Shown here: one piece after another, positions 1 to 7,827 of the stretch
How the letters are laid out: every line of letters starts with the position of its first letter
How positions within the stretch are numbered: the stretch's first letter is position 1
IMG/VR virus record: IMGVR_UViG_2778261572_000001
Coordinates: 1-7,827 of that record
Length of the DNA: 7,827 nt
From: a virus
Taxonomy: Duplodnaviria; Heunggongvirae; Uroviricota; Caudoviricetes
Reading direction: 5' to 3' (one strand)
Notes under the pieces: model-generated
Databases searched by the model: none
Told to the model about the DNA's origin: nothing
Seen by the model: the letters and a program-made list of their open reading frames with translations, nothing else
Program-made: the position numbers and the translations under genes

Positions 1-168
1 GGCGTTCCCCCAAAGCAGGTAATTCCGTTATGCCAGCTAATGAAGTGGGAAGTTACCCCGCATGAAATCCGCCCAGATATTTATCCTAACCCGACCGATG
101 GTTTACCTGTTGGATGTAAGGCTAACACACAAAATGCACAGGAGTTGATTCATGAAAATCAGGCATGA
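1..168 (+). CDS. Cro/YdaS-like HTH regulator, C-terminal fragment (5' end lies outside the window)
   Basis: Frame 1 is open from the window edge to TGA at 166-168 and translates ...LMKWEVTPHEIRPDIYPNPTDGLPVGCKANTQNAQELIHENQA. It sits immediately upstream of the CII-like gene and overlaps it by 17 nt, which is the position cro/ydaS occupies in Rac-type prophages. The family assignment is from memory and from synteny only. Confidence 0.4.
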   Translation, partial: GVPPKQVIPLCQLMKWEVTPHEIRPDIYPNPTDGLPVGCKANTQNAQELIHENQA

Positions 169-574
169 GCACATCGAATCAGTGCTGTTAGCCCTGGCCG
201 CTGAAAAAGGGCAGGCGTGGGTCGCTAACGCAATTACTGAAGAATATCTGCGCCAGGGGGGCGGCGAATTGCCCCTGGTACCAGGCAAGGACTGGAACAA
301 TCAGCAGAATATCTATCATCGTTGGTTGAAAGGTGAAACGAATGCGCAAAGGGAAAAAATTCAGAAACTGATCCCAGCAATTCTGGCAATCCTTCCGCGC
401 GAGCTGCGTCACCGACTCTGCATCTTCGATACCCTGGAACGCCGTGCATTACTGGCGGCGCAGGAAGCGTTGAGTACGGCAATTGATGCGCATGATGATG
501 CAGTCCAGGCCGTTTACCGGAAAGCACATTTCAGCGGTGGTGGAGCGTCCGACGATTCTGTTGTAGTGCATTGA
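152..574 (+). CDS. ydaT: YdaT-like (CII-like) prophage regulator, 140 aa
   Basis: ATG at 152 is preceded by GGAG at 141-144 with a 7-nt spacer; stop TGA at 572-574. The 140-aa length and the position between a cro-like gene and the replication genes match Rac prophage YdaT as I recall it. The translation starts MKIRHEHIESVLLALAAEKGQAWVANAITEEYLRQGGGELPLVPGKDW. Confidence 0.62.
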   Translation: MKIRHEHIESVLLALAAEKGQAWVANAITEEYLRQGGGELPLVPGKDWNNQQNIYHRWLKGETNAQREKIQKLIPAILAILPRELRHRLCIFDTLERRALLAAQEALSTAIDAHDDAVQAVYRKAHFSGGGASDDSVVVH

Positions 575-593
575 TTGAATAGGGTATCCAATA

Positions 594-1007
594 ATGAAAA
601 TCAAACCGTACATAAATGCCGGAAATCTTACTCCCGGCGAACTACGAGACTGGATCCTGAAACTTGCAAAAAATGCAGAAATTGCGGGTTGGGGTACAGA
701 AACTTCGGTTCGGAAGCTTCAGAGCGCAGAACTTAGCCTGCGCTCAGTTATGGACGATTTATCCCCAAGAATTAATTTTCTGGGGTCAGAGCAAATAATT
801 CGTTCGGAAGGTCACTCCAGCGAAGTTGCGGAAGTTCTGAATACTCTGAGGATAACGTTTGCTGCCGTTCGCGATATTCAACGAACCATTCTCTCATTGA
901 TTTCTCAGCTTCAAGAAATTGATAGTCGCATTCCTGGCGGGGGTCATAGAGAGCGTCTTCCAGAATGTGAAGAGCAAGGACAGGGGAAACAGATAAGGGA
1001 TCAGTAA
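594..1007 (+). CDS. hypothetical protein, 137 aa (conflicts with the minus-strand ORF 772-1227)
   Basis: ATG at 594 lies 19 nt after the ydaT-like stop, with only a weak RBS (AGGG at 581-584). First codon positions are G-rich, which is a coding-like signature, and the translation contains amphipathic helix-like stretches (VAEVLNTLRITFAAVRDIQRTILSLISQLQEIDSRI). It uses many rare codons (ATA, AGA, AGG, CGA, CTA). I recognise no family. Confidence 0.35.
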   Translation: MKIKPYINAGNLTPGELRDWILKLAKNAEIAGWGTETSVRKLQSAELSLRSVMDDLSPRINFLGSEQIIRSEGHSSEVAEVLNTLRITFAAVRDIQRTILSLISQLQEIDSRIPGGGHRERLPECEEQGQGKQIRDQ

Positions 1008-1227
1008 TACGTTTTTCACTTGCCTGGTATAGCAATCTCGCCAGCGAATCATAGCTACTGGGGCTCAGGAGAGAATCCCGTGAGTGATTTGTAAGAATCA
1101 GGTGGAAGCGGGTGAGAACTATAGCCCTGCATGTTACCAGGTTAACCATGTCGTGGTCGTGCTGGTTAATTTTGTACACAGTGCGCATGTGATTTTTAAT
1201 TTTTTGGCAAACAGCCATTAAAGACAT
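772..1227 (-). CDS. hypothetical protein, 151 aa, divergent from the replication module
   Basis: On the minus strand a canonical AGGAGG (complement of 1234-1239) sits 6 nt before the ATG (complement of 1225-1227). The ORF overlaps the 3' 236 nt of the plus-strand ORF 594-1007, so at most one of the two is likely real. First codon positions are not G-enriched, which counts against it. No recognisable motif. Confidence 0.38.
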   Translation of the reverse strand: MSLMAVCQKIKNHMRTVYKINQHDHDMVNLVTCRAIVLTRFHLILTNHSRDSLLSPSSYDSLARLLYQASEKRITDPLSVSPVLALHILEDALYDPRQECDYQFLEAEKSMREWFVEYRERQQTLSSEYSELPQLRWSDLPNELFALTPEN

Positions 1228-1290
1228 GTCGAACCTCCTTTGGTTCTGTTGATTGGGGAATCACAGATTATATCCGGAGGAAGGTTCGAC
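1228..1290. promoter_or_regulatory. divergent intergenic region with an imperfect inverted repeat GTCGAACCTCC (1228-1238) / GGAGGAAGGTTCGAC (1276-1290)
   Basis: Both arms were read directly from the sequence. Each arm carries a Shine-Dalgarno-like GGAGG followed by TTCGAC, facing outward toward the minus-strand ORF and the replication gene. A role as operator or divergent promoter region is inferred; promoter hexamers were not confidently placed. Confidence 0.3.
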
Positions 1291-1306
1291 ACCAGATGAG
1301 GCAATT

Positions 1307-2431
1307 ATGGTTAAGGCTAAAAACATGCCAAATCCCATGCCAAAAACTAAGGCAAACAACGAGCCTTATCGCAAGGTAAAAATAACGATATGGGATGATC
1401 CCAAATTTAGGGCGTTATCTCCTCTGCCTCCAAGTGGACAGAGTTTGTTTATTTATCTGCTGACCAGTCCATTTACCGGGATTATTCCTGGGTTGTTTAA
1501 AGCCGGGCGGGCAGCAATGGCTGAAGAGTTGGGGTGGGATATCGAAGCCTTTGACTTAGCCTTAGGCGAAGCCATGAATCTTGGCATGGTGAAAGCAGAT
1601 ATCAAAGCCAGAGTTTTTTGGCTCCCGAATGCTGCGAAACACAATCCGCCAAACTCGATAAATGTCATTAAATCCTGGGCAAAGGCATTCGCTTTAATTC
1701 CTGATTGCCCTCTCAAATGGGAGGCCAGGGAATCGCTGAGAGCCGCGTCCTACGGGGTTTCTGAGGCTTTGGGGATGGCATTCGATAAGGCAATCCCTTT
1801 GCCTGAGGATAAGCCTAAGGATAAGGCTAACGCTTTGTCATGCGGTATCCAGATAACAGATAACAGATATATAAACCCCACACATAACGCGCGCGTGCGC
1901 GAGAGTGTTCCGGCCAGTGAGGCAAATGGCGTGCCGTTGCAGACAGCGGAACCTGATTACCTGGAAGGCCTGAGCGAACCCATCGGGAAATTTCCGATGA
2001 CCGATGGCTGGCATCCGTCGCCGGATTTTCGACGACGGGCTGCGCTGTGGGGCGTGGCTCTTCCTGAGCCGGAATTTACACCAGCTGAACTTGCCGCCTT
2101 CCGGGACTACTGGACAGCGGAGGGGAAAGTTTTCACGCAGGTTCAGTGGGAGCAGAAATTCGCCCGTCACGTACATCACGTCAGGGCGCAGGTTAAACCA
2201 GTCAGCAAGGGGGGGAACCATGCAGCAACGCCAGGTGGCACCGCATCACGGGCAGTTCAGGAAATTCGGGCAGCACGTGAGCAGTGGGAACGTGAAAACG
2301 GATTTATCCTCGACGGAAACGGCGTGGAAGCTGTGGGAACTCATGGGGGAGGTTTATTCGAACCGCTGGACCCAGAAGAACGGGGCCGCACCTTCGAAGC
2401 TCTGGATTGCACAGATTGGCGCGATGACTGA
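1307..2431 (+). CDS. phage replication initiation protein (O-like position), 374 aa from ATG 1307, with a C-terminal region resembling the DnaT-type domain
   Basis: The frame is open from 1253 to TGA at 2429-2431. ATG 1307 is preferred (GAGG at 1298-1301, 5-nt spacer); TTG 1253 and ATG 1326 are alternatives. The C-terminal region ([39 protein letters not shown]) resembles the DnaT-like ssDNA-binding domain found in phage replication proteins, as far as I can recall it. The gene sits directly upstream of a P-like gene. Confidence 0.6.
1784..1901. repeat. iteron-like repeat cluster inside the replication initiator gene (candidate origin)
   Basis: GATAAG occurs at 1784-1789, 1808-1813 and 1820-1825, the last two within a 12-bp tandem GAGGATAAGCCT/AAGGATAAGGCT at 1805-1828. 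A tandem CAGATAA CAGATAA CAGATAT follows at 1850-1870, then an AT-rich ATATATAAAC and a GC-rich palindrome CGCGC-GT-GCGCG at 1890-1901. The layout is analogous to ori-lambda, which lies inside the O gene. Confidence 0.4.
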
Positions 2432-2885
2432 GCAGCAAATCCGTCAGGTCTGCCGCCAGTGCATGGACCGCTGCCGGGCGGGTGAAACATGGCCTCCGGA
2501 CCTGGCTGAGTTTGTTGCGCTGATTTCGGAGAGTGGGGCAAATCCATTTGGTCTGACGGTGGATAACGTGATGGAGGAGTACCGCCGCTGGCGCAACGAG
2601 TCCTGGCGATACGACGGGAGCGATAAATACCCGTGGTCTCAGCCCGTGCTGTATCACATTTGCCTCGAGATGCGGGCAAAAGGGATTGAGCGTCAGATGA
2701 CCGAAGGGGAGTTAAAACGACTTGCAGAACGGCAACTAGCGAAATGGGCAAAGCATGTTGGTGACGGCTTCAGCGTTCCGCCCGTCCGGCGGCAACTGGT
2801 AGCACCAAAACGCCCGTCGGGGCCAACTCCAATTGAGTTGCTGAAACAGGAATATGAACGCCGGAAAGCGGCTGGGTTTGTTTGA
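2220..2885 (+). CDS. replication protein P-like helicase loader, 221 aa from ATG 2220
   Basis: The translation aligns by eye with lambda P: [33 protein letters not shown] against TTMEQVNAGMRVARRQNRPFLPSPGQFVAW, and [17 protein letters not shown] against YPWKSNAHYWLVTNLYQ. ATG 2220 follows a G-rich tract. Alternative starts are ATG 2343 and ATG 2424, the latter overlapping the upstream stop as ATGACTGA. Stop TGA at 2883-2885. Confidence 0.65.
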
Positions 2886-2919
2886 GTTGAGAAGTAATTT
2901 TTACCGGGAGGAAATTTTA

Positions 2920-3663
2920 ATGGAGACCGTTTTTGACACACTGAAAGCGATGGGAAAAGCCACGTCGGTAGAACTGGCTGCGCGACTTGATATCAGTCGT
3001 GAAGAAGTGCTGTGCGAGCTGTGGGAACTGAAAAAAGCTGGTTTCGTGGATAAAAACGCCTACACCTGGCGTGTGGCTGATAACAACGTTCAGCAGGAAC
3101 AGCCAGTGCAGGCTGAACTGCCGGAAGAAACCACCACGGCAACAGTCGCTAAAATTTCGGAGAGCGATTTAACTGCGACGATTGAACAACGTGGACCACA
3201 AACGGCGGATGAACTGGCTACGCTGTTCGGTACCACATCCCGCAAAGTGGCGTCAACGCTGGCAATGGCAATCAGCAAAGGTCGTCTGATTCGTGTAAAC
3301 CAGAACGGTAAATTTCGTTACTGCATACCGGGTGATAATTTACCAGCAGAGCCGAAAGCAGCATCGGTAGCGGAAACTGATGGTAAAGCCTTTCCTCAGC
3401 CAGCAGGTGTTGCGTTACCAGTACAGGAAGTTGCAACACAGGAAGATATTAAAACAGAAACTGTGGCGGACATTGTGCAGCCGCTTGAGAAGCGAGTGGA
3501 TAATCTGGTTCTGCCATCGCTGCGACAGGCAAACCGCGAACTGCGTCGGGCGAAAAATCATGTCCAGAAGTGGGAGCGAGTCTGCGCCGCGCTGCGGGAG
3601 CTGAATAAATATCGCGATATTGTCGCCCAGCTTTGCCAGGAGGCAACCAGTGAGCAAGATTGA
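2920..3663 (+). CDS. tandem winged-helix DNA-binding protein, 247 aa
   Basis: GGGAGG at 2906-2911 with an 8-nt spacer precedes ATG 2920. Two winged-helix-like modules are visible ([41 protein letters not shown] and [33 protein letters not shown]). The upstream ATG at 2854 has no RBS and was rejected. Confidence 0.62.
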
Positions 3664-4198
3664 CTATCAGGCACTGCGTGAGGCAGCAGAAGCAATAAAA
3701 ATAGCAGCCACACCACAAAAATTGCTGGCATTTCGTATGAAAGCCACACCTCAGGTTGTGTTGGAACTGCTGGATGAACTGGAAATTAAAAGCAAACGAA
3801 TTAACGAGTTAATCAAGGGTGGTGAAAACGCCAAATACGTGACTGAAATTTTCCGACTTGAGAAAGAACGCATGACGCTGGTGGCGGAGAATGCGGTAAT
3901 GCTCGAAACTATTGAAGCCGTTCGCAGTGTTGCGGATAACTCCAGTGGAATTGCCGGATGGCATTTGAATGGCGATATCGCCACATGGGAAGAGATTCTT
4001 CCTGAAATTAACGATATCGAAACCCCAGCCACCGATGCTTTCCTGGCTGATGTACGGGCGGTGGCGTTTAACGAGCTTCGCGCGGCGTTTGTCAGGCACG
4101 CAAAAGTTGCAGGACTGGATGATGCCGATACCGTAACGCTTAAGGAAGTGACAGAAGCATTATTGCATTGTGCGGAACAGATTCGCGCGCCTGAATAA
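3650..4198 (+). CDS. ead/Ea22-like family prophage protein, 182 aa (GTG start)
   Basis: AGGAGG at 3638-3643 with a 6-nt spacer precedes GTG 3650, and the gene overlaps the upstream stop by 14 nt. The N-terminus ([22 protein letters not shown]) resembles the QALREAAE signature I associate with Ea22-like prophage proteins. The ATG at 3620 given in the ORF track lacks an RBS. Confidence 0.5.
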
Positions 4199-4322
4199 TT
4201 AAATTTAGTGTTGTAAATAAAATTTAATCCTTAACCGGAGGGATTCCTGCACCCTCAAATCATCAGGAGGCCGCCCGAAAGGGCGGTAATAAAAATGGCT
4301 GAACTAATCGGAGAACAAAACG

Positions 4323-4517
4323 ATGAAAAACCGTAAAGCAAAAATTCTTTTGACCTGTAGAAACGCTCGCGGCGTCCAGCAATGGTTAAAACTCAGTAAC
4401 CGCAGAATGGGATTGTTCACAAATACGGCTGATATTGTGATGTGTTCACTTAACAAGCCCAGCGCCGCACAAAACCGCTGGAGAAACCACGGTTCTCAGC
4501 GAACTGAAGGGGAGTGA
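4323..4517 (+). CDS. small basic protein, 64 aa (uncertain)
   Basis: GGAG at 4310-4313 with a 9-nt spacer precedes ATG 4323. The translation is rich in K and R (MKNRKAKILLTCRNARGVQQWLKLSNRRMG...). It could instead be 5' UTR for the downstream genes. Confidence 0.3.
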   Translation: MKNRKAKILLTCRNARGVQQWLKLSNRRMGLFTNTADIVMCSLNKPSAAQNRWRNHGSQRTEGE

Positions 4518-4520
4518 TAT

Positions 4521-4739
4521 ATGCCTGCATTTTTCAGAAAAGAATATCCGCGAAAGATCAGAGCAACAGAATTCCTGTTTCTCATTCTGTTTATCGTGTT
4601 GATGATACCGATATCCCCGTTAATTCTGGTATGGGGAATCGGGAAAATAATTGAGCCAGTTATTGAATTGTATAACGACGTGGTATGGGCGTCGTTCAAC
4701 ACATTGCACAATAAAATTAATCCATATAAGGAAAACTGA
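4521..4739 (+). CDS. small single-pass membrane protein, 72 aa
   Basis: A strong RBS (AAGGGGAG) lies 6 nt before ATG 4521. The translation has a basic N-terminus (RKEYPRKIR) followed by one hydrophobic helix (FLFLILFIVLMIPISPLILVWGIG). The region is AT-rich. Confidence 0.55.
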   Translation: MPAFFRKEYPRKIRATEFLFLILFIVLMIPISPLILVWGIGKIIEPVIELYNDVVWASFNTLHNKINPYKEN

Positions 4740-4740
4740 A

Positions 4741-5235
4741 ATGACTTTTACCGAAAAAGAAATGATTAAAGAAATCAAAGAGCGTATCAGTAGCCTGGAC
4801 GTACGAGACGATATTGAGCGCCGGGCTTATGAAATTACATTGGCATCACTGGAAGCAGAGCCGGTAGCATGGAGTGTAGGCAATGCTATAACTCGTGACC
4901 ATGAGAAAGCACAAAAGATTGCCGGGGATACTGGATTTTCAATTATTCCATTATACACTGTCGCAAAAGATGCTCAGAGTGTGACAAATCATTGGATGCC
5001 TGAAGTTGGCGAATATTGCGAAGTATGTACTGATGACTCTGAAATTGAATGGTTAAAAATCAAGGTGGTTGCTATTCATGGCGATGAGGTAGCCGCCATT
5101 GTTTGTGACCCTGACGATTATTATTATGATCGCTTAAAGCTTTTGGGTTGGGAATACGACAATTCTGTTTTTCGCCCTCTATCCGAAGGCGATGTTGAAA
5201 ATAACCCGATAAGTGCGGAGAACACATTACGATGA
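4741..5235 (+). CDS. hypothetical acidic protein, 164 aa
   Basis: ATG 4741 is coupled to the upstream stop (TGAAATG) and preceded by AAGGA about 8 nt upstream. The ATG at 4651 in the ORF track overlaps the previous gene and has no RBS. The C-terminal half is rich in D, E and Y (CDPDDYYYDRLKLLGWEYDNSVF). I recognise no family with confidence. Confidence 0.58.
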   Translation: MTFTEKEMIKEIKERISSLDVRDDIERRAYEITLASLEAEPVAWSVGNAITRDHEKAQKIAGDTGFSIIPLYTVAKDAQSVTNHWMPEVGEYCEVCTDDSEIEWLKIKVVAIHGDEVAAIVCDPDDYYYDRLKLLGWEYDNSVFRPLSEGDVENNPISAENTLR

Positions 5236-5315
5236 CCTGGCCTGAAGCATTCACAACGGTAGGAATTGCGATGGCGGTGGCGCTGGTGGTGTATTCGATT
5301 TGCCGCTGGGGATAA
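5232..5315 (+). CDS. 27-aa hydrophobic peptide (MTWPEAFTTVGIAMAVALVVYSICRWG)
   Basis: Its ATG overlaps the upstream stop as ATGA at 5232-5235, a classic coupling arrangement. The single hydrophobic stretch is long enough for a transmembrane helix. It is absent from the ORF track because it falls below the size cutoff. Confidence 0.35.
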   Translation: MTWPEAFTTVGIAMAVALVVYSICRWG

Positions 5316-5322
5316 AAACGGT

Positions 5323-5350
5323 TTGCGGGAAAAGGAGAGTTAAGTAGAAT
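5323..5350 (+). promoter_or_regulatory. candidate weak promoter for hok/mok mRNA
   Basis: TTGCGG at 5323-5328, a 16-nt spacer, then TAGAAT at 5345-5350. This places the transcript start near 5357, exactly where the 5' element complementary to the 3' end begins (5355-5368). Confidence 0.3.
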
Positions 5351-5409
5351 TGCAGCGGGTGCTTGAGGCTATCTGTCTCAGGCATGAACACCAAAAGGCA
5401 GATAGAGAA

Positions 5410-5480
5410 AAGCCCCAGTTAACATTACGCGTCCTGCAAGACGCTTAACATTAATCTGAGGCTCAATCCATGCTGAACAC
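5410..5480 (-). ncRNA. sok: Sok-like antisense RNA (position inferred)
   Basis: In hok/sok loci the antisense RNA is transcribed opposite the mok translation-initiation region. A candidate minus-strand promoter is present: TTGCCT (complement of 5508-5513), a 17-nt spacer, then TAACCT (complement of 5485-5490). The coordinates are approximate and the ends are not determined. Confidence 0.3.
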
Positions 5481-5682
5481 ATGTAGGTTAGCCTCTTACG
5501 TGCCGAAAGGCAAGGAGAAGCAGGCTATGAAGCAGCAAAAGGCGATGTTAATCGCCCTGATCGTCATCTGTTTAACCGTCATAGTGACGGCACTGGTAAC
5601 GAGGAAAGACCTCTGCGAGGTACGAATCCGAACCGGCCAGACGGAAGTCGCTGTCTTCACAGCTTACGAACCTGAGGAGTAA
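5470..5682 (+). CDS. mok: Mok-like in-frame upstream reading frame of hok, 70 aa
   Basis: ATG 5470 is in frame with hok, with GAGG at 5457-5460 and a 9-nt spacer. The N-terminus MLNTCR... matches the chromosomal MokC-type extension as I recall it. Confidence 0.5.
   Translation: MLNTCRLASYVPKGKEKQAMKQQKAMLIALIVICLTVIVTALVTRKDLCEVRIRTGQTEVAVFTAYEPEE
5527..5682 (+). CDS. hok: Hok/Gef family type I membrane toxin, 51 aa
   Basis: The translation MKQQKAMLIALIVICLTVIVTALVTRKDLCEVRIRTGQTEVAVFTAYEPEE is an unmistakable Hok/Gef family sequence, by my recollection closest to HokD/RelF. AAGGAG at 5512-5517 with a 9-nt spacer precedes ATG 5527. Confidence 0.85.
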   Translation: MKQQKAMLIALIVICLTVIVTALVTRKDLCEVRIRTGQTEVAVFTAYEPEE

Positions 5683-5689
5683 GAGACCT

Positions 5690-5746
5690 GGCGGGGGAGA
5701 AATCTCCCGCCACCTCTGATGTGTCAGGCATCCTCAATGCACCCGC
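5690..5746 (+). other. hok mRNA 3' structure: stem-loop plus fbi-like element complementary to the mRNA 5' end
   Basis: A stem-loop lies at 5690-5711 (GGCGGGGGAG aaat CTCCCGCC). The segment 5732-5746 (CCTCAATGCACCCGC) can pair over 14 bp, with one bulge, to 5355-5368 (GCGGGTGCTTGAGG). This is the long-range tac/fbi interaction characteristic of hok mRNAs. Confidence 0.5.
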
Positions 5747-5806
5747 ACCTGACGCGTTTTGCTGGGTTAATGTTGAGCCATTTGTCATGTTAATAAGGAG
5801 GAGTGA

Positions 5807-6672
5807 ATGAGAACGTATATTAAAGAGTTGAGATGGGGTAATTTTATCCTGCTCAGAGGTGATATGATTTCTAATTATGCTTCAAATTATGGGGAATGGT
5901 GCGAGGTTGAGGTTGACTTATACAAAACATTATTATCAGAAGGTAGTAATGTTATAGAGATAGGTGCAAACATAGGACTGCATACAATTCCATTGTCAAA
6001 AATTTGTGGTAAAGGGAGCATAATATGCTTTGAACCGCAACCACCAATATTTAACATGTTATGTGGTAATTTGGCTATAAATAATATATTGAATGTTATG
6101 CCATATAACAAAGCTGTTGGAGATAGGTGTGGTAGTGTTGTAATTCCTGTGTCTTCGTATGATAAACCATGGAATTATGGTTCATTTTCAATTGAAAAAG
6201 GTTATAATAGTGAAGGTGATTATGATGCCAGCCCAGCCCAGCCCAGCAATGCATTGATCTAATCACAATAGATGCATTTACGGAATCAACGGGCTTGAAA
6301 GTTGATTTTATTAAAATAGATGTTGAAGGCTATGAACTAAACTGTATTCGCGGGGCCGTAAACACAATAAAGGATAACAGACCAGCAATATTTTGTGAAG
6401 CCATTAATAAAAATATTACAAATGAGGTTGTGTCTTTTTTATCAGATCTTGGTTATGAAGGTTTTTGGTTCATTGGAAACAGATATAGACAAGATAACTT
6501 TTTTGCATGTCCTGGACAAATCTATAATAAATTGAGTTATGATGTTAATATTATCTTCATTCATAAAGAGGACAGGGGGGGATCGAGAAATCTATGTAGA
6601 GAAAGGCTTAAAAGATTCGAGTATTTTGAGCAATTACATGAAGGGATAACTGTTCTGAATTCATATCCTTAA
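5807..6672 (+). pseudogene. FkbM-family (Methyltransf_21) SAM-dependent methyltransferase, frameshifted at a pentanucleotide repeat
   Basis: The N-terminal ORF 5807-6262 carries the VIEIGANIG glycine-rich SAM-binding motif and the ICFEP motif. The C-terminal reading frame is open from 6226 to 6672 and carries KVDFIKIDVEGYEL. The two frames meet at the repeat at 6227-6247; deleting one 5-nt unit gives a single ORF of about 286 aa. A strong RBS (AGGAG at 5796-5800) precedes ATG 5807. The region is markedly AT-rich, roughly one-third GC by eye. Confidence 0.7.
6227..6247. repeat. pentanucleotide tandem repeat GCCAG(CCCAG)3C
   Basis: Read directly from the sequence. It forms a GC-rich island inside an AT-rich gene, exactly at the frame break of the methyltransferase. 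Confidence 0.9.
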
Positions 6673-6697
6673 AAATATCTGTATTACTTCATGTTAG

Positions 6698-6750
6698 CAG
6701 ATAAACCAATTCCGAACATTGGGGTTGGTTTATCTGTATTTATGTTTTAT
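6698..6750 (+). terminator. candidate intrinsic terminator after the methyltransferase gene
   Basis: A perfect 12-bp inverted repeat, CAGATAAACCAA (6698-6709) and TTGGTTTATCTG (6725-6736), is followed by a T-rich tract (TATTTATGTTTTAT). Confidence 0.45.
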
Positions 6751-6814
6751 CATTAGAATAAAGCCAGTCTGAACAACTGGCATCTGCTGCACTGCGCCAT
6801 AGAGAGATTAATAA

Positions 6815-7414
6815 ATGGCGCATATACAACTGGTCAAACATACTTCTTCTGGTTTACTTCTCCCGGCGACGCCGGAGAGTTGCGATTTTTTGCATCAAAT
6901 CAAAATAGGTGAGTGGATACACGCAGACTTTAAGCGTGTGCGTAACTACGCATTCCACAAGCGTTTTTTCAAACTCCTGCAACTGGGATTCGATTACTGG
7001 ACTCCGGTCGGTGGGGCGATCACGCCTCGCGAACGAAAACTGGTATCAGGCTTCGTTGATTACCTGTGCGAATCAGTAGGTCGGGAACACACTCCAGCCC
7101 TGAGTGATGCCGCAGAGCAATACCTTAATACAGTTGCGACATGCAGAACCCGGGATACGGCATTGCTAAAGTCGTTTGACGCTTTCCGCGAGTGGGTAAC
7201 CATTCAGGCCGGATTTTACACCGAGCATATTTATCCGGACGGTAGCCGCGGGCGTCGAGCGAAATCCATCGCGTTTGCGAATATGGACGAAACCGAGTTT
7301 CAGCAGGTTTATAAATCTGTGCTGAATGTGCTGTGGAACTGGATCCTGTTCCGTAAATTTTCCTCTCCGGAACAAGTCGAAAATGTGGCCGCGCAGCTAC
7401 TGGAGTTTGCGTAA
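6815..7414 (+). CDS. DUF1367-like prophage nin-region protein, 199 aa
   Basis: ATG 6815 follows the terminator-like hairpin, and the stop overlaps the next start as TAATG. The family assignment is from memory of proteins of this size preceding DUF1364/YbcO genes in lambdoid prophages and was not verified. Confidence 0.55.
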   Translation: MAHIQLVKHTSSGLLLPATPESCDFLHQIKIGEWIHADFKRVRNYAFHKRFFKLLQLGFDYWTPVGGAITPRERKLVSGFVDYLCESVGREHTPALSDAAEQYLNTVATCRTRDTALLKSFDAFREWVTIQAGFYTEHIYPDGSRGRRAKSIAFANMDETEFQQVYKSVLNVLWNWILFRKFSSPEQVENVAAQLLEFA

Positions 7415-7704
7415 TGGTGAATTTACGTAAAGCGGCGCGGGGCCAGATGTGCCAGGTCAGAATCCCTGGATACTGCAATCATAATCCTGAAACGTCTGTG
7501 CTGGCGCATTACCGACTGGCGGGAACGTGTGGAACGGCGATAAAACCACACGATATGCAGGCAGCGATTGCCTGTAGCTCGTGCCACGATTTAATCGACG
7601 GGCGGGTAAAAACCAGCGATTACACCAAAGAAGAATTACGCCTGATACATGCAGAAGGTGTTTTTCGCACACAAGAAATCTGGAGAAAGGAAGGTTATTT
7701 ATGA
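7414..7704 (+). CDS. ybcO: YbcO-like (DUF1364) putative zinc-binding nuclease, 96 aa
   Basis: The translation MVNLRKAARGQMCQVRIPGYCNHNPETSVLAH...CSSCHDLIDGR matches my recollection of the YbcO family, including the N-terminal LRKAARG motif and the Cys cluster. It is coupled to the upstream gene (TAATG) and to the downstream gene (ATGA). Confidence 0.65.
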   Translation: MVNLRKAARGQMCQVRIPGYCNHNPETSVLAHYRLAGTCGTAIKPHDMQAAIACSSCHDLIDGRVKTSDYTKEELRLIHAEGVFRTQEIWRKEGYL

Positions 7705-7827
7705 TTTACCCAACGAATACAGGAAAAAGCGGAGAACACCTTCGTCTCACCACGCTGGAAAGTGTCTGGATTCAGGGGAAACTGCGTATGTGGGGGCGCT
7801 GGTCGTATATTGGTGGCGGTAAGACGG
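7701..7827 (+). CDS. 5' part of a downstream nin-region gene running off the window; possibly a Q-antiterminator-like protein
   Basis: A strong RBS (AAGGAAGG at 7687-7694) with a 6-nt spacer precedes ATG 7701, and the frame is open to the window end. The motif LRMWGRW loosely resembles the ERWGAW motif near the N-terminus of 82-type Q/QuuD antiterminators; this product guess is weak. Confidence 0.5.
   Translation, partial: MIYPTNTGKSGEHLRLTTLESVWIQGKLRMWGRWSYIGGGKT

Follow-up and report, generated by a model that had tools for sequence, protein, structure and literature searches.

A candidate replication origin built of 12-bp-phased repeat arrays inside the initiator gene of a Rac/DicA-type lambdoid prophage

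We have analyzed a stretch of viral DNA of 7,827 nucleotides (IMG/VR record IMGVR_UViG_2778261572_000001, positions 1 to 7,827), referred to here at its full length as the window, which forms the early-right part of an E. coli lambdoid prophage of the Rac/DicA type. Our subject is the replication initiator gene of this prophage and the repeats that lie inside it—three arrays of short sites at 12-bp spacing, a CAG-purine tandem that runs into an AT-rich tract, and a box that is shared with related genes. Judged from sequence comparison, the segment 1763-1907, together with the arrays at 1544-1615 and 1313-1379, is probably the replication origin of the prophage, located within its own initiator gene in the way that ori-lambda is located within gene O. 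The genes and features of the locus are summarized in Table 1, and all positions are those of the window.

Table 1. Genes and sequence features of the window, in order of position (aa, amino acids; ORF, open reading frame).
Feature	Position	Strand or location	Description
YdaT/CII-like gene	152-574		
Two overlapping ORFs		Between the YdaT/CII-like gene and the initiator gene	No function assigned
Replication initiator gene	1307..2431	+	374 aa; predicted N-terminal winged-helix domain, disordered linker, DnaT-like C-terminal domain
Array 0	1313..1379	5' end of initiator gene	About six 12-bp-phased WWGSC sites: AAGGC, ATGCC, ATGCC, AAGGC, GAGCC, AAGGT
Folded N-terminal domain coding region	1394..1801	+	aa 30-165, AlphaFold2 (AF2) model
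Array A	1544..1615	Codons 80-103	Six 12-bp-phased sites: AAGCC, TAGCC, AAGCC, TTGGC, AAGCA, AAGCC
Array B	1763..1843	Linker	Seven 12-bp-phased WWGSC(W) sites: GAGGC, ATGGC, AAGGC, TTGCC, AAGCC, AAGGC, TTGTC
CAG-purine tandem and AT-rich tract	1844..1878	+	GGTATC, CAGATAA x3, ATATAAACCC
C-module box	1873..1907	+	AAACCCCACACATAAC-GCGCGCGTGCGCG-AGAGTG; contains a GC-rich near-palindrome
DnaT-like ssDNA-binding domain coding region	1991..2191	+	aa 229-295, PF17948; NCBIfam DnaT NF002770, partial match
Lambda-P-family helicase loader gene	2424..2885	+	Overlaps the initiator stop codon
DUF1627, Ead/Ea22, hok/sok, DUF1367 and YbcO genes		3' of loader gene, in listed order	

The conserved unit of the arrays, as it emerges from an alignment of the linker DNA of homologs, has a 12-bp period and the core WWGSCW—a quasi-palindrome of 5-7 bp (WWGSCWW) whose form is RAG-S-CTT where the host is GC-rich and T-W-W-G-S-C-W among enterics. 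Array B keeps a strict register, with units at 1772 (GGGATGGCATTC), 1784 (GATAAGGCAATC), 1796 (CCTTTGCCTGAG), 1808 (GATAAGCCTAAG), 1820 (GATAAGGCTAAC), and 1832 (GCTTTGTCATGC). Array A is also detected by Tandem Repeats Finder, as a 12-bp period at 1543-1573, and array 0 also shows up as direct repeat D1. A search for four WWGSC units with N7 spacers, allowing at most one mismatch, finds 16 matches in the window where 0.01 would be expected, and every one lies in one of three clusters about 230 bp apart in the N-terminal half of the initiator gene. The complete 47.5-kb genome of a 98%-identical phage has 17 such matches against 0.03 expected, in the same three clusters only; the arrays are unique to the initiator gene within the phage genome. 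Among the 3.4-kb loci of 27 relatives, the phased pattern is nearly confined to two fixed positions in the gene, those of arrays A and B—by the strict four-unit test, array A is in place in 20 of the 27 and array B in 16—and array 0 is found at the same gene position only in the enteric members of these 27 loci.

A preliminary description of the window had proposed 1784-1901 as a candidate origin with iteron-like repeats built on GATAA, and all the elements that it listed are present. GATAAG occurs three times (1784, 1808, and 1820), each time read in frame as Asp-Lys; Tandem Repeats Finder recovers the 12-bp tandem as a unit repeated 2.5 times at 1801-1830 and the CAGATAA tandem as a 7-bp unit repeated 2.9 times at 1850-1869; and the AT-rich run is ATATATAAAC at 1867-1876. 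The five copies of GATAA do lie close together, all inside 80 bp. Five GATAA per 90 bp were seen in none of 2000 dinucleotide shuffles, and any 5-mer five times per 90 bp in 4 of 300. They are not, however, a single repeat family: all three copies of GATAAG fall in array B, and the CAGATAA pair sits in a separate 7-bp tract. An iteron-like array is there, and the GATAAG copies are part of it, but GATAA is not its core. The proposed extent covers part of the feature and misses arrays A and 0, which lie outside it. The GC-rich palindrome, CGCGCGCGTGCGCG, is where it was described (1888-1901), but it is imperfect, with a 5-bp stem, and it was rejected as a hairpin after folding no better than shuffled sequence (z -0.89).

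In the protein encoded by the gene, Pfam places a DnaT domain at residues 229-295 (E 9e-18), the protein as a whole matches phrog_1408 'replication initiation protein' (E 7e-91), and the Prokaryotic Genome Annotation Pipeline names it 'DnaT-like ssDNA-binding domain-containing protein'. Residues 1-228 have no Pfam match at E <= 0.01; PHROG families named 'replisome organizer' and 'DnaD-like helicase loader' match residues 21-133 weakly (E 4e-4 to 5e-13). A sequence-profile search of the PDB with the initiator returned only spurious matches to designed repeats and pentatricopeptide repeat (PPR) proteins, and a Foldseek search with the model gave no significant E-value. The AF2 model that we used, built on an alignment of 80 homologs, reaches a predicted local distance difference test (pLDDT) score of 82, with a confident core at residues 30-165; an alignment of 10 sequences had given 62. 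This core is predicted to contain a winged helix (helix 44-53, strand 63-65, helices 68-75 and 79-91, strands 96-98 and 103-105) followed by a helical bundle. The linker is disordered at residues 169-182 (pLDDT < 50), in agreement with the earlier placement of the repeats in a linker; array B, the tract, and the box lie between the folded core and the DnaT domain, at codons 153-201. The codons of array A overlap the predicted recognition helix (79-91) and the first wing strand, so that the DNA encoding the putative reading head itself carries putative sites.

The preliminary description had proposed asking whether homologs conserve the repeats as DNA beyond what the protein requires, and such conservation is found at synonymous sites. 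We aligned 27 genome loci with N-domain homologs (46-91% amino acid identity)—among them loci of Salmonella, Citrobacter, Pluralibacter, Stenotrophomonas, Variovorax, Paraburkholderia, Cupriavidus, Pandoraea, and Methylomicrobium—together with some 50 viral contigs that are 78-84% identical. Across these roughly 80 homologs, from Enterobacteria to Burkholderiales, the arrays are maintained by means of rare synonymous codons. A per-codon survey finds islands of near-100% codon identity at 1544-1595 and 1781-1853; at other conserved residues of the gene, use of the majority codon is typically 40-60%. In GC-rich hosts, array B differs from the rest of the gene in its codons for Ala (GCT, 62% vs 15%), Pro (CCT, 74% vs 14%), and Lys (AAG, 99% vs 67%); for these rare codons in hosts of 62-67% GC, p ranges from 1e-12 to 1e-23, values that overstate independence because the codon tests pool related sequences. 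The 52 enteric genes show the same kind of difference between array B and the rest of the gene for Leu (TTG, 97% vs 16%), Lys (AAG, 90% vs 41%), Ala (GCT, 78% vs 21%), and Pro (CCT, 73% vs 30%).

In array A, the first codon of the unit ends in A (GAA, AAA, or CAA for Glu, Lys, or Gln) in 106 of 119 cases, against 253 of 781 elsewhere (p 5e-33); AAGCC is therefore kept across a codon boundary, in a reading register unlike that of array B. When distant pairs are compared (159 pairs with at most 62% amino acid identity), identical residues use the same codon at a rate of 0.60 in array A and 0.75 in array B, against 0.38 elsewhere. Equivalent unit positions also hold chemically different residues—Lys AAG or Leu TTG, Ala GCT or Pro CCT—while WWGSCW is retained. 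The codon results and the residue exchanges with the core kept lead us to reject a purely protein-level explanation; by this comparison of homologs, the arrays are shown to be constrained as DNA, independently of the protein they encode.

The arrays also travel with one part of the gene. Megablast comparisons with E. coli genomes and with other phages place the breakpoints at 1847-1869. The N-terminal half of the initiator is found in 37 of 5426 complete E. coli genomes, and a further 255 match only from about position 1851 onward, which brings the total for the C-module to 292; the C-module is present as well in PPompW prophages, neighbours of Shiga toxin (Stx) 2a phages. The N-domain, the arrays, and the CAG tract stay together across at least three classes of C-domain, each with its own partner gene downstream: a DnaT-type or other acidic-tailed C-domain is followed by a lambda-P-like loader (PF06992), a C-domain ending in ...PPGFRG by an IstB/DnaC-like ATPase (PF01695), and a third type by a DnaB helicase (PF00772 and PF03796). 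The sequence comparison thus shows that the arrays are inherited with the N-domain and that a change of C-domain goes with a change of helicase or loader partner. Which partner follows can be predicted from the C-terminal tail of the initiator, ...IPPGFRG going with the IstB/DnaC-like ATPase and ...DWRDD or ...FDDE with the P-like loader (examples are loci L148, L164, and L191; L091, L093, and L099).

The reverse exchange is seen in 83 loci that share the DnaT-type C-domain of the window. They comprise eight upstream (N-terminal) sequence types, each with repeats of its own, and these type-specific repeats directly precede the shared tract and box (...ACAGATAAAGATACAGATCTAAAAGAATTAAA followed by CCCCACACATAACGCGCGCGTGCGCGAGAGTG). 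The repeats include TGTCACGAC, with a 10/11-bp period, 4 to 8 copies, and rotating translation frames (e.g., CHDESRTCHDESRTCHDVSRHVTT); CAACTACG in both orientations; GTAACGC-N5-GCGTTAC; CAAAGACACCCAAA; and GTTCAAAC. Three of these other types have a second array 200-300 bp upstream. In loci L009, L056, and L084 the arrays lie at about -370..-300 and -120..-28 from the box, and dual arrays occur also in L003 and L042. Repeats that are exchanged along with the N-domain are what one would expect if a domain and the sites that it reads have to stay together.

Downstream of array B lies the weakest duplex of the gene: its least stable 30-mer is 1846-1875 (dG -30.9 against a mean of -42.1, sd 3.5), which ranks in the window's top 0.8%, and the least stable 30-mer overlaps the CAG tract in 18 of the 27 relatives. 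The tract is purine-rich on the coding strand, as in lambda, and its homologs are CAGNAAA x4 in enteric relatives; in GC-rich hosts they read (CAGGAR)n, with about 3-10 units. The CAGATAA tract is an element separate from the arrays, probably the unwinding element, and it is also the mosaic junction. The box that follows is common to all eight upstream types that carry this C-domain. TL-2011b keeps CCCCACACATA and reads it in a different frame; in diverged C-domains the box varies about as much as the neighbouring codons (e.g., CCCCTCTCTTAACGCGGGCGCG), with some loci mis-anchored. A 15-nt run of strictly alternating purines and pyrimidines, ACGCGCGCGTGCGCG at 1887-1901, stands directly 3' of the AT-rich tract; such a run is in principle prone to form Z-DNA, and CG-alternating variants of it occur in other versions of the C-module.

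How such an origin would work can be outlined from its parts. The N-terminal winged-helix domain would bind the 12-bp-phased WWGSCW sites as an oligomer, and the adjacent tract (CAGATAA x3 and ATATATAAA), being the least stable duplex in the gene, would melt. From what is known of these protein families, the DnaT-like C-domain would recruit the neighbouring lambda-P-like loader, which would deliver host DnaB; it may also hold the unwound strand. The suggestion that this is an origin, made in the preliminary description, has gained support from codon conservation, co-inheritance, the different repeats of other N-terminal types at the corresponding place, breakpoints, melting, and the P-family neighbour, and the parallel that it drew with ori-lambda likewise holds in position, co-variation, AT-tract, and loader.

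The closest comparison is with ori-lambda, in which gene O has iterons and an AT-rich tract at its middle and is followed by gene P (PMC7466680). In the lambda annotation and sequence, four 18-bp iterons at 20-24-bp spacing occupy O codons 116-144; iterons of the lambda type, about 18-19 bp long, have internal dyad symmetry. The window resembles this layout in having candidate origin elements mid-gene, between a putative DNA-binding N-domain and a putative loader-binding C-domain; repeated sites followed by an AT-rich tract with purines on the coding strand; and a P-family loader gene immediately downstream (PF06992, E 1e-15; phrog_109 'P-like helicase loader'). Among the mosaic relatives of the window, as expected of a lambda-type origin, the repeats co-vary with the N-domain and are separated from the C-domain by an exchange point just beyond them. 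The differences are that the N-domain of the window initiator has no Pfam Phage_rep_O match; that the window has three arrays, spaced about 230 bp, each with 6-7 sites whose 5-7-bp cores are phased at 12 bp; and that the C-domain is DnaT-like, with a shorter AT tract made of a 7-bp CAGATAA repeat. By this analogy, the window element would work like ori-lambda, as a variant and not as a family member; we set it apart because its N-domain is not of the O family and its sites are 12-bp mini-units in three arrays.

Other systems share single traits with the window. In the RepA_N theta plasmids of Gram-positive bacteria, such as pSK41, the origin is central in rep, encodes a dispensable linker, and is bound by the N-terminal winged helix-turn-helix (HTH) domain, and in pPR9 the origin was swapped along with the N-domain. 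The window has no detectable sequence relationship to these plasmids; it belongs to phages of Proteobacteria, has three arrays of much shorter units, and its relatives partner with a P-like loader, a DnaC-like ATPase, or a DnaB helicase, not with DnaG primase. DopC and DopE are a domesticated pair of O-like and P-like proteins; the O-like DopC has a C-terminal DnaT motif and an HTH_36 N-domain, and its authors detected no iterons in it (Brezellec et al. 2017, PMC5509034). The window likewise has an O-like protein with a DnaT C-terminal motif adjoining a lambda-P-like gene—the PPompW-type relative L002 also has this pairing—but its N-domain is not HTH_36, lacks a Pfam match, and carries conspicuous arrays. 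In contrast to the origins of iteron plasmids (RepA, pi, TrfA), which have iterons of 17-22 bp at about 22-bp spacing, DnaA boxes, and a Rep_3-type winged-helix initiator, the window has 12-bp units, neither a perfect DnaA box nor a cluster of such boxes, and no Rep_3 Pfam match. The 'replisome organizer' G38P of phage SPP1 binds oriL repeats inside its own gene 38. The window shares with it the repeats within the initiator's own gene and a weak PHROG 'replisome organizer' match, but it has no Pfam Phage_rep_org_N match and differs in host phylum and repeat type. No origin is annotated here in the public records that we examined for these prophages, we found no description of this origin in the literature, and the paper on Eru-type Stx phages does not discuss origins or iterons; such an origin built of short sites at 12-bp spacing has apparently not been described before.

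The main rival explanation accepts the arrays as genuine protein-binding sites and assigns them to autoregulation, copy control, or handcuffing, with replication starting elsewhere in the prophage. The DNA-level constraint, after all, shows only that something reads the DNA; binding to array 0 at the 5' end of the gene could repress expression, and three arrays about 230 bp apart could loop. We nevertheless consider a regulatory role unlikely—the complete 47.5-kb relative has arrays nowhere else, the least stable duplex lies right beside them, one would look for operators in a promoter and not in an interdomain linker, and the N-domain moves together with its arrays between C-domains that are matched to a loader or helicase, as in known intragenic origins.

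A second explanation concerns the tract and box, which might be a recombination junction: linker homology that serves module shuffling among lambdoid phages, shared through recent descent of the C-module and without a role in initiation. The clustering of breakpoints at 1847-1869 fits this idea, as do the movement of the box with the C-domain and its change, in diverged C-domains, at about the pace of the surrounding coding sequence. A junction at this place is also predicted by an origin, because the iterons must stay with the N-domain; and a junction leaves unexplained why arrays A and B are constrained at synonymous sites even in relatives with unrelated C-domains, and why TL-2011b retains CCCCACACATA in another frame. 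We regard this explanation as improbable. The last, that the repeats are a by-product of a low-complexity Pro/Lys/Asp (or Gln/Glu) linker together with replication slippage and have no function as DNA, would account for the in-frame Asp-Lys GATAAG, a 12-bp period equal to four codons, a disordered linker, and (CAGGAR)n copy numbers of about 3 to 10, but it is very improbable and already largely refuted by the codon analyses, given the rare synonymous codons fixed across distant hosts, the alternation of Lys/Leu and Ala/Pro under a constant WWGSCW, the position of array A inside a folded domain in a different codon register, and the 7-bp and 10/11-bp periods of sister elements, which cannot be protein repeats.

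Several points nonetheless weigh against reading the locus as an origin. The conserved core is short (5-7 bp) and degenerate, and by the strict four-unit test array A is missing in 7 of the 27 relatives and array B in 11. In 9 of the 27 the CAG tract is not the least stable segment, and the AT tract of the window is short, at 74% AT over 27 bp against 85% in the best 27-mer of lambda. The palindrome, as noted, shows no folding beyond that of shuffles, and the case for its conservation as DNA, beyond what coding requires, comes mainly from the one frame-shifted relative, TL-2011b. The pooling of related sequences in the codon tests is partly controlled for ancestry by the distant-pair test alone, and array A may partly reflect the 4-residue periodicity of an amphipathic helix. 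The region has no perfect DnaA box, a single box with one mismatch, and no cluster; on these grounds, an origin driven by DnaA boxes was rejected. Finally, binding, unwinding, and origin activity are predictions from sequence.

A wider reading may be offered tentatively, as possible but doubtful: the window would represent an undescribed and widespread family of proteobacterial phage initiators, in which three helically phased arrays of 12-bp mini-iterons wrap an initiator oligomer and a CAG-purine microsatellite acts as a tunable unwinding element. If this were true, one array would be written over the codons of the predicted recognition helix, making the DNA of the reading head also its target; the unwinding element would be CAGATAA x3 here and (CAGGAR)n of about 3-10 units elsewhere, with its top strand captured by the DnaT-like ssDNA-binding C-domain. 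That at least three other upstream sequence types have two arrays, 200-300 bp from each other, suggests a general multi-array design, unlike the single four-iteron block of lambda.

Rac/DicA-type lambdoid prophages with DnaT-type initiators are common, and a defined origin would give a handle on prophage induction and copy number as well as a source of compatible new replicons. The locus would also be a case of dual coding, in which a protein sequence and a protein-binding DNA constrain the same bases. The module of N-domain and iterons occurs across Gamma- and Betaproteobacteria with three kinds of helicase-delivery partner; this breadth and the three partner kinds make it a natural system for studying the mix-and-match of origin recognition and helicase loading. 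The principle is classical—the dual-coded multi-array architecture and its breadth are what is new.

The closest database record, PP818812.1, is 98% identical over the module. It is labelled 'Actinobacillus phage vB_Apl-pPE4' with A. pleuropneumoniae as host; its remaining genes resemble an E. coli Rac-type phage, and the host label looks doubtful. A search for natural plasmids with this initiator found a sole match, CP100067.1, a 47.7-kb circular E. coli 'plasmid' that has no replicon type and carries an identical initiator N-terminal half beside a P-like gene; this record probably represents the same phage in circular form.

Some further features of the window deserve mention. Rfam finds no RNA family in the origin region, and its single match in the window is sok (RF01794, 5357-5532, 118.9 bits), part of a hok/sok toxin-antitoxin locus at 5357-5682 with a Hok-like ORF at 5470-5682. 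A perfect 10-nt inverted repeat at 1227-1291 (TGTCGAACCT / AGGTTCGACA, with 45 nt between the arms) sits between a divergent ORF (772-1227, minus strand) and the initiator start; possible readings are an operator and an RNA structure, and locus L029 has the same leader ahead of a DUF1376-type initiator. An FkbM-like methyltransferase gene in an AT-rich island at 5807-6672 is broken by (CCAGC)x4 at 6228-6247; with three CCAGC units instead of four, it would be an intact ORF of 286 amino acids, and the split gene is either a case of slipped-strand phase variation or a pseudogene.

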